Source of the DNA: Lachnospiraceae bacterium
GTDB taxonomy: Bacteria; Bacillota; Clostridia; Lachnospirales; Lachnospiraceae
DNA length: 64,000 nucleotides
Assembly: GCA_045117315.1 (NCBI GenBank)
Contig: JBGUNJ010000204.1
Span: 4,378-68,377 of the forward strand
Direction of reading: 5' to 3'
Each line of letters opens with the position of its first letter. Position 1 is the first letter of the stretch. A model generated the notes under the pieces. The model did no database searches. It had not been told where the DNA came from and worked only from the letters and a program-made list of their open reading frames with translations. Shown here one piece after another: positions 42,801 to 48,188 of this stretch. The position numbers were made by a program, and so were the translations under genes.

Positions 42801-43483
42801 ACACAATATGGGATGCTTATTTGGGTGGAAAAAAGCCAACTATTCCAATCACATTCGATTCAGAAGCGGCAGCAAAGGCCAGGGACAATTCTACAATATT
42901 TGTGACTCCCATGCATCCCCTTGCACGTCAGGCTGCGGATTTGCTCACCAAGAGTTCAACGATGCAGTTGTGCCTGCATCTCTATTCTGACAAAATTCCT
43001 GCAGGACAGTATTTGTATTCAGTATATGCATGGAGATATGCCGGTTTTAACTCATACACACGAATTATTACAGTTTGTGAGAATGAAGAAATTGAATCTG
43101 AGTTGCCTGACATTCTAGAGGATTCAACCGAATATCCTATCGGGTCTTCAAATGCATTTGACTGGACGGGCTTGGAACTTCGCCATGTGATGAAGTGGCA
43201 GAATGCTGTTGCAGACTATCAGAGACGTATTAATACATCTAAAGCCTTTAAGTTAGAAACTCTTTCCAATAACTACAGGAATCAGATGAGATCCCTTGAG
43301 CGAAAAATTAACGTTGCTGCCAATGATTCCATAAGACGTATGTATATGAGCGAAATGGATAATATATCAGATATGTTTGAAAAGAAGAAAATAGAAATCG
43401 AGCAGACTAGGGCAGAAATTTACACGAATATACTGGTCAATGGTGTAGTTAGAGTCTCAGAGGAGATAGAGAGTCATGCTTAG
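39878..43483 (+). CDS. SNF2-family (RapA/HepA-like) helicase with a ~290-aa N-terminal extension
   Basis: [19 protein letters not shown] (motif I, from 40760), [11 protein letters not shown] (II, 41117-), MLTATPLQ (III) and [42 protein letters not shown] (V-VI) are present. ATG 39878 is preferred over the TTG at 39827 in the ORF track. Confidence 0.85.
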   Translation: [1201 protein letters not shown]

Positions 43484-46400: not shown

Positions 46401-48188
46401 CCTTTTGAGCTGACGACTTCCAGAGAGCAGATTGAAGAAGATTGCGAGGCATGGAATGGTCGTGTACGTCTGGAAATGTATAGGGCATTAAGGGAACTTA
46501 TTGTCTTTCTTCGAAATGAGCACAGAGTAGATATTCTTAGGCTTACCAGATATGTCCCCAGGTTGAAGGGAAAAATCAGAGAGTACGTGAATGATATTTT
46601 TGATAGCCCCTATTTGACCGGCTACAATTTTTTGGAAATCTTGAAAAACACCGAGATTTTACCAACTTATAATCACGATATATTTGAATCGGCAAACAGT
46701 GGACGAGCTCTGAGGTTTCCTGAAGTGGCACATTTCCTGTTTAAACAGGGCTGTTTTGGGGAGATTGACCCTTCTTCCGTTCTTGATATTAATTCAAAAG
46801 ATTATGAAGCGGCTATTAATGCGCTGGACTGTAAGTCTGCAATGTTTGATCAGGTATTTCCTTTGCTAATGATATACTCTGATAATTACGTACATGATAA
46901 AGAATATAGAACATTACTATATGAATATTTACAGGAATCACCTCATGAATATGCTGATCAGATAAAAAAACTTGCCATTATACCTGTATATGGAAATGTT
47001 CCAGATGCCACACGATTCGTGAAGTGGCAGCCGGACAAGATATTTGTCAAGAAAAATGTAAATAAATCAACGGATGATTATTTCATCTTAAACACGGATG
47101 AGCTTTCAAAAGCTTTCTGTGAAAGAATGTTAAATGTAAACATCAATGAGATGAATGATGAATGGGAACGTAGAAAATATGACGAGAAATTTAGAGCAAT
47201 CCTTGACTGGGAGGATGTAGAAGATATTTACAATATGCTTCTCTATGAATTCAAATATGGGAATGTGCGGAGAAACTATCCTTCCGGTCTACCAATGGAT
47301 TATAAGGAACGTATCCCCCTGAAAAACAGGAATGGGGTAATCGCCCGACAGCATCTGTTCCTCTGTCGGGAAGAAGTAGAATACTTCCCTGTAGCTATAG
47401 TTAAACAGATTACAGTAGCTGATGAATGTGCAAGGATGGCTGAATCAATTGGCAGTACTGATCTCTGTGATGTACATTATGAAGATTTTAATTACGACAA
47501 GCAGTTAGACGAAGATGATATTGAAGTTTTGATGGATGATTACTTTAATAATTCAGATGAGATTCTTAGAGGCTTTTATCAAGACGGGCTTCTGTCGGAT
47601 GAATTATTAGAAGAATATAACCTGAATTATCTGGCGAATAGTCGTGTAGATGACACTATGGATGATGAAGACTTTCCTAATGATCCTGTTTATAACAGAG
47701 AACAGCTGAGAAAGCACGTGAACAAGAAATTTGCTTCGCTGGTAAAAATAATTCCAATTGTTGTCGAAAGGACCGTTTATCGGGGGAAAGACCAAAGCGG
47801 AAATGTTTTTGATTTGCAAAACCGGGATACACGCGAAGGCGCGCTTCATATTTACGCATCATCTAAAAAGTATGGAATTTGTTTCTGCCAAATGTGCAAA
47901 AAGAGGAAGCCTAGCTCATTCATTGAGGTAAATAATCTTCAGATTTTACCCAAATACTATTTTCCTCAGATGAGAGTATCATTATGCCTTGAATGCAGTA
48001 AAATCTTCGAGGGCCTCCGTAAGAATGACTCCGTGCGAAAAGAGTATTTTAATTCGATAAAAAATCAAAAGATTGGAAACGAGGGAAACATTTGTGTTCC
48101 GATTGGTAATGACGAGTCATTAACCTTTACTGCTAAACACTTGGCTGAGATTCAAGAAATATTAAAAAGGTATGGGGATGATATTTAA
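43476..48188 (+). CDS. 1570-aa protein with two sacsin/MORC-like GHKL (Bergerat-fold) ATPase modules and a C-terminal Cys4 cluster
   Basis: There are two N-box-like motifs: RFIFELIQNVDDC (from about 43752) with GEKGIGFKSVFGVADKV, and RFIQELIQNADDC (from about 45687) with GEKGVGFKTVFAVASQI. The C-terminus has CFCQMCKK...CLECSKIF. The ATG overlaps the upstream stop by 8 nt, with gaggaga upstream. Confidence 0.8.
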   Translation: MLREINELYGNTDCRDLGSRQLEELRDGLKNVSPEEIKSSSDGIMYIKLLHMFRFAVAENDKFHGENYPSLLNSLLSVGEDGLYSNNLRFIFELIQNVDDCDYPNSENCRLDMQFRFDEDEIILTYNEVGFTPFNVFAITGIAEAAKNISSSKNEIGEKGIGFKSVFGVADKVLIQSGWFSFILNKENFTVPISAYSSSSDPYIEGTKMTLYVPGKAKLIYSQIKNQYCKKEAIFSRNPLLFLNKLTSLNIFFDEWRRMEFHVSKKAHMTEGGIHREDNIQVFVDLHDYDNGRDTNVTESFMCTRYTLPVTYSREACQARYGDNTKVGENGGKRMLLQAVLPTPEHVADVGNGSLYSFLPTQLKLTVPIVIHVPFKLDASREFVDPQNHNRWFLESSQKLSELMEYLYKDWCKTVRSDIVFFLPGARESLFAPNNGKEKCLSDNKDFQGIHFLKMPVFITTDDEYCPHQDVFSFNPDENVMDPERVYKMLMVEENLFLVPETVNPRKYDIKIFKDAAKELLQKAISNPNVTEEALEYLDSVSYLYGPKDIPDNKQISLTCRQIEIIMKHEQLAKIFTEVTCRLLKMQKNIQVSIADLKPVPIHKAVQAGFDKSETPKRVERYLDKVNLQSVCLDIKDNQYLPCSNGLVLSMANPTSSLASLCFAVDEKDTFAIRIKLKEASERLNQFIEDDAGSAEDYLRELRNIRLTVRDSLGNEGYKSYINLILRSGTERKRFIQELIQNADDCVYDKDIIPAFYLQQDGSKVVTQYNEEGFTRENIRSITAIGESTKNRLLKGEYQTIGEKGVGFKTVFAVASQINIFSGEYNFSLTDEAPTIPKIYKRTDLSRVDGTRMEIFLKGNRNIIDFNEKNILELCLCLRQLKEITIGPHKINISDTDDTRTLVIDGRKQVFRKFVHKFEISDPDAIKERARGMHVVLPQQQIICYVPERFGSQEYHIYSGLPTRHMVKIPVAFDAPFELTTSREQIEEDCEAWNGRVRLEMYRALRELIVFLRNEHRVDILRLTRYVPRLKGKIREYVNDIFDSPYLTGYNFLEILKNTEILPTYNHDIFESANSGRALRFPEVAHFLFKQGCFGEIDPSSVLDINSKDYEAAINALDCKSAMFDQVFPLLMIYSDNYVHDKEYRTLLYEYLQESPHEYADQIKKLAIIPVYGNVPDATRFVKWQPDKIFVKKNVNKSTDDYFILNTDELSKAFCERMLNVNINEMNDEWERRKYDEKFRAILDWEDVEDIYNMLLYEFKYGNVRRNYPSGLPMDYKERIPLKNRNGVIARQHLFLCREEVEYFPVAIVKQITVADECARMAESIGSTDLCDVHYEDFNYDKQLDEDDIEVLMDDYFNNSDEILRGFYQDGLLSDELLEEYNLNYLANSRVDDTMDDEDFPNDPVYNREQLRKHVNKKFASLVKIIPIVVERTVYRGKDQSGNVFDLQNRDTREGALHIYASSKKYGICFCQMCKKRKPSSFIEVNNLQILPKYYFPQMRVSLCLECSKIFEGLRKNDSVRKEYFNSIKNQKIGNEGNICVPIGNDESLTFTAKHLAEIQEILKRYGDDI

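Follow-up and report, generated by a model that had tools for sequence, protein, structure and literature searches.

The principal new result of this analysis is one of genomic context. In a 64,000-nt stretch of a Lachnospiraceae bacterium genome (NCBI GenBank assembly GCA_045117315.1, contig JBGUNJ010000204.1, positions 4,378 to 68,377 of the forward strand; hereafter the window, numbered from its first letter), a gene encoding a protein with two tandem sacsin-like GHKL ATPase modules lies directly behind a gene for a DrmD/RapA-like SNF2 helicase, and relatives of this helicase turn out to be the constant partner of the tandem-GHKL gene. The two genes make up a well-populated, unstudied two-gene cassette, with three genes in the lineage of the window, which is carried in the defence islands of anaerobic Firmicutes, mainly gut and rumen Bacillota. 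It seems moderately probable to us that the cassette acts in defence against mobile elements, a reading that we infer from the setting in genomic islands, from the HEPN domain of toxin type that the partner protein carries, from the homology of the ATPase module to that of the defence protein TmtA and from the precedent of the GHKL-helicase systems described in PMC2292703. We also lean, if a little less firmly, towards the tandem-GHKL protein being the signature subunit of this two-gene defence cassette, in which it would work as an ATP-driven clamp or sensor together with the HEPN-bearing SNF2 protein.

Gene linkage was analyzed in a context sample of 48 species-genome loci and the loci of selected homologues, in which the relatives of neighbouring genes were located by tblastn. 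Wherever the flank was informative (42/42 loci), the gene immediately next to the tandem-GHKL gene proved to be an SNF2 orthologue, and the four loci that yielded no SNF2 match are either cut by contig ends or placed such that the partner could lie past the end. The SNF2 orthologues are 43-65% identical over about 1200 aa. Their gene usually comes first, separated from the GHKL gene by a few nt or overlapping it by 8 nt, but the order is reversed in two loci (L030 and L034) and a superfamily 1B (SF1B) helicase stands between the two genes in a further one (L009). The two proteins also diverge in concert: their identities to the window copies co-vary with a Pearson coefficient of 0.81 and a Spearman coefficient of 0.85 (n=31). 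In the window itself, the tandem-GHKL open reading frame (ORF) is intact and begins with an ATG, preceded at about 10 nt by a GAGGAG ribosome-binding site, and this ATG overlaps the stop codon of the SNF2 gene by 8 nt, an arrangement that suggests translational coupling with the upstream gene. A scan of the operon for promoters and terminators returned counts equal to the shuffled expectation. The SNF2 protein, whose true start is likely the ATG at 39878, matches the PADLOC DrmD family at 6e-110 and has RapA as its closest solved structure by sequence. The partnership between SNF2 proteins and sacsin-type ATPases is broader than the two-module family, since in one locus (L062) a single-module sacsin-like protein of 1083 aa is encoded between an orthologous HEPN-SNF2 gene and a gene for PDC-S68, the SF1B helicase that also lies upstream of the pair in the window. 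The initial annotation of the window, made from its letters alone, had tied the tandem-GHKL protein to both of these helicases; the SNF2 protein is indeed its constant partner, whereas PDC-S68 accompanies it in a minority of loci.

The tandem-GHKL protein is a single chain in which each of two ATPase units is followed by an unrelated spacer, with a Cys4 finger at the end (Table 1). By motifs, profiles and fold, both modules belong to the Hsp90/sacsin branch of the GHKL ATPases. The whole protein scores 60.2 bits against Pfam SACS (PF25794, cutoff 32.8) and 104.3 bits against NCBIfam P_loop_sacsin (NF047352, cutoff 50), with two matched stretches in both cases, and its match to HATPase_c_3 is marginal. 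Taken alone, module 2 passes both sacsin models (45.3 and 58.6 bits, respectively), while module 1 passes the NCBIfam one (50.2 bits) and stays under the Pfam cutoff (26.4 bits, E=7e-6). Residue conservation was assessed on the protein and 50 representatives of 50%-identity clusters (51 sequences), the representatives being 24-48% identical to it. Over this set, the motif I residues E93/N97/D100 of module 1 and E738/N742/D745 of module 2 are invariant or nearly so, and the same holds for the sacsin-variant motif II (N127/F131 and N770/F774), for the lid residues (G157/G160/G162/F163 and G802/G805/G807/F808), for the GT-motif threonines (T207 and T851) and for the arginines of a downstream 'SRE' motif (R381 and R983). 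Motifs I and III of both modules are also invariant in the 40 relatives that are at least 48% identical.

The residues that set sacsin apart from Hsp90 are compiled in Table 1 of Perna et al. (PMC9880540), where Hsp90 E33/N37/D40 are equated with sacsin E116/N120/D123; the N-box of module 1 corresponds to these positions. Read against the same table, both modules carry Asn for the adenine-contacting Asp and, four residues on, Phe for Met84, and by their position R381 and R983 are candidate equivalents of Hsp90 R380 and sacsin R474. With the ATP-binding residues thus kept in both modules, neither of them is likely to be a decayed pseudo-ATPase, and both units are predicted to be catalytically competent ATPases of the Hsp90/sacsin type. 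Structural models point in the same direction. AlphaFold2 models of the two halves, computed separately from a 40-sequence alignment, reach a mean predicted local distance difference test (pLDDT) of 84.4 for residues 1-675 and of 83.8 for residues 641-1570. When compared with the PDB by Foldseek, the module 1 half has Hsp90/HtpG-type chaperones as its top matches (E=3e-9, probability 1.0) and the module 2 half TRAP1/Hsp90 (E=1.3e-10, probability 1.0). For both halves the top matches are full-length members of the Hsp90 family (TRAP1, Hsp90, HtpG and GRP94) with 500-700 aligned columns, and constructs comprising the N-terminal plus middle domains are also among the matches; global template modelling (TM) scores stay low (0.2-0.35), which is usual when multidomain models are flexible.

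Judged by sequence comparison, the repetition of the module cannot be attributed to chance. The motifs of the two modules are offset by 645 residues, and a BLASTP comparison of the N-terminal with the C-terminal half aligns aa 21-220 to aa 676-864 (34% identity, E=1e-25) and, collinearly, aa 337-407 to aa 933-1012 (E=2e-5). Profile-profile alignment with hhalign, using sub-alignments taken from 40 family members, sets the limits of the duplication at aa 24-403 in the first copy and aa 676-1009 in the second (328 columns, probability 99.9%, E=3.7e-36). An extension of the duplication into the spacers was considered and rejected, as hhalign detected no similarity between aa 421-660 and aa 1021-1300. 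Most of what the initial annotation had put forward on the modules is hence borne out: the motifs stand where it had placed them in an intact frame, the internal duplication is supported by both alignment methods, sacsin profiles and Foldseek matches to Hsp90, TRAP1 and HtpG agree with the Bergerat fold that it had proposed for the two modules, and the ATP-lid glycines of the second module (G802, G805 and G807) are kept once the two are properly aligned.

The family to which the protein belongs is large. A word-indexed search with the tandem-GHKL protein returned 1320 significant proteins, and the best 120 clusters are all 1559-1660 aa in length, with 98-100% query coverage and 48-94% identity. 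One of these, from a Ruminococcus albus genome, goes by the NCBI name 'sacsin N-terminal ATP-binding-like domain-containing protein'. Of 1.84 billion cluster representatives, an exhaustive HMMER search with module 1 recovered 3322 at E<=1e-3, with 113 reaching E<=1e-30. When modules were counted with a hidden Markov model of the core in the 98 top representatives of at least 1200 aa, 80 proteins had two, nine had three and nine had one. The view that a bacterial protein with two such modules is unusual, expressed when the gene was first annotated, was thus overstated, given more than 120 full-length clusters and the prevalence of two modules among the long representatives. Tandem sacsin-type modules are common in metagenomic proteins, very probably of prokaryotic origin, and the species-representative hosts are nearly all Bacillota (Oscillospiraceae, Ruminococcus, Lachnospiraceae, Christensenella, Selenomonas and Phascolarctobacterium). 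The three-module proteins span about 2500 aa, with modules about 1000 aa apart; these metagenomic proteins (P0212, P0214, P0215, P0219, P0220, P0223, P0224, P0226 and P0227) have the same number of modules as eukaryotic sacsin.

Outside the ATPase modules, spacer 1 gave no significant Pfam match (the best being DUF4550, E=0.0077, with 17 bits against a cutoff of 27), the last 550 aa had no Pfam match at E<=1 in the protein or in 18 diverse members of the family, and the C-terminal region had no PDB sequence match with the family profile. Foldseek searches with the whole-half models were dominated by the Hsp90-like part and gave no class for the C-terminal domains. The DUF3883 domain (now Pfam NOV_C) that had been suggested as a possible component is absent from the protein, and scans of 18 members of the family did not detect it at a threshold as loose as E<=1. 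The Cys4 element consists of C1471/C1474 and C1504/C1507 (nt 47886-47996, pattern CFCQMC...CLEC), is invariant in the 40 relatives at least 48% identical and is present in 44 of the 51 sequences of the broader, more distant set (~86%); the domain that contains it also has a conserved terminal helix, FTAxHLAEIQEIL. In the AlphaFold model the second CxxC falls at a strand-to-helix junction. On this modelled secondary structure, which is what the assignment of finger type rests upon, a treble-clef or beta-beta-alpha finger seems a better description of the element than the classical zinc ribbon to which it had been compared; the four cysteines themselves stand as proposed. The arrangement CxxC...IEVNN...LCxxCS also recalls an HNH beta-beta-alpha finger stripped of its histidines; Pfam HNH gave no match, and we treat this resemblance as a lead only.

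The neighbours of the cassette in the context sample include type I restriction-modification (R-M) systems, GmrSD, Zorya (ZorA/ZorB), Mrr, integrases and transposases, and in the window its genes lie on an island of ~40% GC within DNA of ~52% GC, after an ABC-transporter operon. A non-immune reading of this setting is that the pair acts on DNA or transcription in the service of a mobile element or of the host, be it through RapA-like recycling of stalled RNA polymerase, chromatin-like compaction or element maintenance. Such a role would fit the closeness of the SNF2 protein to RapA among solved structures, the position of some loci beside prophage genes and recombinases, the presence of four loci on contigs classed as viral and the failure to find an effector nuclease in the GHKL protein. 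Nonetheless, curated collections of phages and plasmids are essentially devoid of the family, containing no close relatives and only distant DUF3883 proteins, and relatives occur on only 4 of 2.9 million viral contigs, where they again adjoin SNF2. Most partners, moreover, carry a HEPN RNase domain of toxin type in which Rx4H is intact, and the neighbours are repeatedly bona fide defence systems. We consider a non-immune role of this kind unlikely.

The HEPN domain of the partner calls for separate comment. An N-terminal HEPN_Swt1 domain (PF18731) is recorded on SNF2 orthologues, most of which keep an intact Rx4H motif (VRNNWAH). In the SNF2 protein of the window both the R and the H of the motif are lost, and Pfam HEPN is not detected in this copy. 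The loss is common to L053 and L054-56, and independent losses have occurred in L024/L044/L046, in L027 and in L017, lineages in which PDC-S68 is absent. Rx4H has been lost, then, in at least four or five lineages, and both genes stay intact in them, which makes it unlikely that the HEPN RNase is the essential effector of the cassette. As read from these sequences, the domain probably has the role of an auxiliary or backup suicide effector and does not provide the core activity; an auxiliary or backup role has been proposed by others for HEPN fusions in BREX-related systems (PMC12839542). The loss in the window might be taken to mean that the copy found there is a decaying, non-functional relic, the HEPN active site of the partner having been destroyed: its Rx4H motif reads C...Y instead of R...H, and a neighbouring restriction-like gene looks degraded. 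The three ORFs of the operon are, however, of full length and retain their ATPase and helicase motifs. The HEPN-dead state is common to L054-56, where the GHKL protein is only 69% identical and the genes are intact too, implying that selection continued after the loss, and other lineages with independent HEPN losses also keep both genes. That the window copy is such a relic appears to us quite improbable.

More improbable still is that the tandem-GHKL protein is a plain TmtA, the defence protein of the single-gene Tiamat system, to which any standard defence finder would already give that name. The only PADLOC families that it matches, besides a weak REase_II, are indeed those of TmtA (best E=2.2e-70, 236 bits), but the matches are confined to the N-terminal ATPase region of the profiles, with best stretches at 29-345 of 1302 and 26-393 of 1655, or about the first quarter. 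By contrast, for a bona fide reference TmtA encoded on a Deinococcus plasmid (L057), the match to PDLC03969 spans positions 7-1503 of 1563 and scores 642 bits; this protein combines SACS with the C-terminal NOV_C/DUF3883 domain that is also present in a second reference protein (L058). Membership in TmtA was accordingly rejected on profile coverage, on the lack of NOV_C and on the SNF2 neighbour that is always present, and the alternative is already largely refuted by coverage and domain content. That the protein is an Hsp90/sacsin analogue folding proteins for proteostasis, with helicase neighbours by coincidence, is hardly credible, for although its top structural matches are Hsp90-family chaperones and sacsin of eukaryotes is itself considered a chaperone (PMC3710099, PMC9880540), its sporadic distribution and low-GC island, its invariant linkage to and co-divergence with the HEPN-SNF2 helicase, its restriction and defence neighbours, its Cys4 finger of nucleic-acid type and the defence proteins that are the closest bacterial relatives of its module all speak against it.

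We return to the role of clamp or sensor subunit that we favour for the tandem-GHKL protein. GHKL ATPases such as Hsp90, MutL, GyrB and MORC generally act by ATP-dependent association of two N-terminal domains. In the cassette, the two modules of one chain would close on each other upon ATP binding, in what would amount to a single-chain N-terminal dimerisation, and the closed modules would form an ATP-gated clamp or conformational switch that senses its target or keeps hold of it, be this invading nucleic acid or a nucleoprotein or transcription complex. The SNF2 motor would then track or remodel the target held by the clamp, and its HEPN domain would be an optional suicide effector. In the lineage of the window, the RecD2-like helicase PDC-S68 has joined the operon. 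Several points weigh against this proposal. Contact between the modules is something that we infer, the two halves having been modelled separately, and N-domain dimerisation is doubtful even for eukaryotic sacsin (PMC9880540). The single-module relative that pairs with SNF2 in L062 shows that two modules per chain are not essential to the wider system. Pfam scans and a search of the PDB with the family profile found no nuclease or other effector domain in the 1570-aa protein, the defence-island context is suggestive and not proof, and our literature searches found no paper describing a cassette of HEPN-SNF2 and tandem-sacsin proteins. A bolder formulation would see here a novel type of immune machine in bacteria, whose single-chain, pseudo-dimeric Hsp90/sacsin-type ATPase would close on itself under the control of ATP and act with a HEPN-armed SNF2 motor, with no need of a nuclease in the ATPase subunit, and would make bacterial proteins of two or three units, tied in function to HEPN, the prokaryotic antecedents of the repeats and the HEPN domain of eukaryotic sacsin; we regard it as rather doubtful.

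Should the cassette be a defence system, it would be a widespread and so far unannotated addition to the immune systems of Clostridia from the gut and rumen, organisms whose phage-host biology is poorly mapped. The repeated loss of the HEPN motif with retention of the cassette suggests a core activity that has no need of the nuclease, which would be mechanistically unusual among helicase-associated defence systems. The implications may also reach beyond bacterial immunity. ATP binding and hydrolysis by the repeats of sacsin, the human ataxia protein, and the dimerisation of these repeats are still debated. The strict conservation of catalytic residues in both modules makes the bacterial protein a natural single-chain test case for cooperation between GHKL units and, if our reading is right, a tractable bacterial model for sacsin-type ATPase repeats.

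Table 1. Features of the cassette and its immediate neighbours, in window coordinates.
Feature	Position	Strand	Description
Facultative third gene, RecD2-like SF1B helicase	36082..39837	+	1251 aa; PADLOC candidate PDC-S68
Obligate partner, DrmD/RapA-like SNF2 helicase	39827..43483	+	1218 aa; Pfam SNF2-rel_dom and Helicase_C
Degenerate HEPN active-site motif VCNNWSY	40175..40195	+	VRNNWAH (Rx4H) in orthologues
Tandem sacsin-like GHKL protein gene	43476..48188	+	1570 aa; ORF and translation, homologue clusters, Pfam SACS, NCBIfam P_loop_sacsin
Module 1 (aa 24-403)	43545..44684	+	Bergerat ATP-binding domain and Hsp90-middle-like domain
Module 1 motif I / N-box RFIFELIQNVDDC (aa 89-101)	43740..43778	+	Sequence; conservation
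Module 1 motif III / ATP-lid glycines GEKGIGFKSVFGVA (aa 157-170)	43944..43985	+	Sequence; conservation
Spacer 1 (aa 421-660)	44736..45455	+	Alpha/beta, no family assignment; confidently modelled
Module 2 (aa 676-1009)	45501..46502	+	Second Bergerat ATP-binding domain and middle-like domain
Module 2 motif I RFIQELIQNADDC (aa 734-746)	45675..45713	+	Sequence; conservation
Module 2 motif III GEKGVGFKTVFAVA (aa 802-815)	45879..45920	+	Sequence; conservation
C-terminal region (aa 1021-1400)	46536..47675	+	Uncharacterised, alpha/beta and helical; confidently modelled
C-terminal Cys4 zinc-finger domain (aa 1408-1569)	47697..48182	+	Conservation; modelled secondary structure
Macro-domain gene, possible accessory	48624..49355	+	Pfam Macro 6.5e-28

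The helicase encoded upstream of the pair matches RecD2 and RecD and aligns with PDC-S68 almost end to end (1511.8 bits, aa 11-1249 on positions 4-1219 of 1221); its first 500 aa have no family match. PDC-S68 is a recurrent but facultative third gene, which adjoins the pair only in the window and the other members of its clade (L053-56), in L025, in L009 and in L062; L001 has a distant relative, which lies 10 kb from the pair. PADLOC lists it as a single-gene system, whereas here it is embedded in, or abuts, the cassette of SNF2 and sacsin-like genes. On the other side of the pair, homologues of the Macro-domain protein are encoded 20-26 nt after the tandem-GHKL gene in L035 (9804-10244) and L042 (14691-15131), and nearby in L033. 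In L062, a gene for an ADP-ribosylglycohydrolase (17101-18060) overlaps the end of the PDC-S68 gene; ADP-ribose-processing genes recur directly downstream of the cassette, and no ADP-ribosyltransferase was seen with them. The Macro-domain gene of the window is directly followed by a gene for a DUF6994 protein (49378-50127, Pfam 3.7e-80).

The drop in GC content from ~52% to ~40% occurs just after the ABC-transporter operon (26585-29424), the low-GC stretch extending over about 29500-50000 and a second one over 54000-62000; a tRNA scan and examination of the island border found no tRNA gene or integrase there. At the start of the island are genes for a 465-aa protein with an N-terminal zinc ribbon (29676-31073) and for a 281-aa protein with a weak HNH match (31161-32006, E=0.006), and relatives of neither were found in the other loci. 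Further on comes a gene for an 875-aa ResIII/Helicase_C protein (32741-35368) that resembles restriction helicases of type IV and of type I/III. Behind it, after a gap of ~350 nt, lies a 137-aa ORF (35720-36133), for which the sole match is to RE_endonuc, the C-terminal domain of type III Res subunits. This ORF is in the same reading frame, but the gap contains several stop codons, and the two ORFs may be what is left of a restriction gene that has been interrupted or has degraded. The ResIII gene is overlapped at its start by a gene for a 198-aa class I S-adenosylmethionine (SAM) methyltransferase (32178-32774; PADLOC mad2-like, TehB-like), homologues of which (50-55% identity) are encoded just downstream of the tandem-GHKL gene in L023 (16415-16993) and L040 (14209-14784). 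Downstream in the window, where GC content rises again, lies a gene for a leucine-rich-repeat, surface adhesin-like protein (51078-52880; NCBIfam HupY/LrrG-like, E=1.9e-35, far below cutoff). Beyond it come genes for a patatin-like phospholipase with DUF6363 (53028-53948), two TFIIB-type zinc-ribbon proteins (54002-55408 and 56912-58096) and a GTPase with DUF697 (58097-59515), which are possibly further conflict-related genes.

Through its ATPase module, the tandem-GHKL protein is related both to Tiamat and to eukaryotic sacsin. Like the protein described here, TmtA has an N-terminal sacsin-type GHKL module, is about 1500 aa long and resides in defence islands; it differs in that its ATPase module is single, that NOV_C/DUF3883 follows at the C-terminus and that it is scored as a single-gene system. 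The protein described here has a second module and a Cys4 finger, lacks NOV_C and comes with an obligate partner, the HEPN-SNF2 protein. Tiamat figures in the literature as a mechanistically uncharacterised system, and the word Tiamat was not found in the text of the Millman preprint. With eukaryotic sacsin the protein has in common the repetition of Hsp90-like ATPase units in one polypeptide, the changes of Asp to Asn and of Met84 to Phe with respect to Hsp90, the E/N/D and GxxGxGF motifs, and a conserved arginine downstream. Both are also associated with HEPN domains, in cis in the case of sacsin and on the partner protein in the case of the cassette, but these are of different types: the partner has a Swt1-type domain, whereas that of sacsin is the nucleotidyltransferase-associated PF05168 (PMC3710099). 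Only marginal similarity in sequence links the protein to sacsin domains of solved structure (E=0.07), and the repeats, spaced at ~645 aa, contrast with the three SIRPT repeats of sacsin, which are ~1000-1400 aa apart. A eukaryotic sacsin orthologue was rejected as an identification, there being two repeats instead of three and no match to the Ubl, DnaJ or cis HEPN domains.

The SNF2 core of the partner matches both DrmD of DISARM and RapA, and the partner differs from DrmD in its additional N-terminal HEPN domain. DISARM was rejected, since the partner scores 296 bits against a DrmD equivalog cutoff of 610 (NCBIfam), and Pfam and PADLOC scans detected no drmA, drmB, drmC or methylase genes in the window operon. 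Hma was likewise rejected: its ATPase is of the DUF499/BrxC-like AAA+ type and not GHKL (PMC12839542), and the tandem-GHKL protein has no HmaC profile match. A further parallel is offered by VcSduA, a GHKL-fused Shedu nuclease of the paraMORC3 group with validated anti-phage activity, in which the GHKL part has been proposed to gate the effector via a dimeric clamp (PMC12137116). VcSduA is a homodimer with a fused PD-(D/E)xK nuclease, whereas the tandem-GHKL protein has its two modules in cis and no recognisable nuclease. More generally, prokaryotic MORC and paraMORC proteins combine GHKL and S5 domains in ATPases encoded beside superfamily 2 (SF2) helicases, including SWI2/SNF2 proteins, in R-M-like operons, and a role in the ATP-driven reorganisation of DNA-protein complexes has been proposed for them (PMC2292703, Iyer, Abhiman and Aravind 2008). 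The tandem-GHKL protein resembles them in being a GHKL plus S5/middle-type ATPase encoded beside an SF2 helicase in R-M-like neighbourhoods. It departs from them in its tandem duplication and in its profile and fold, which place it in the Hsp90/sacsin branch, and its partner carries a HEPN RNase where MORC/paraMORC systems have HNH or EcoRII-type DNases. That its best matches are to sacsin and Hsp90, and not to MORC or MutL, argues against membership in the MORC group. By analogy, it seems plausible that the cassette works in the manner of the MORC/paraMORC-helicase systems, with an ATPase drawn from another branch of the GHKL superfamily.

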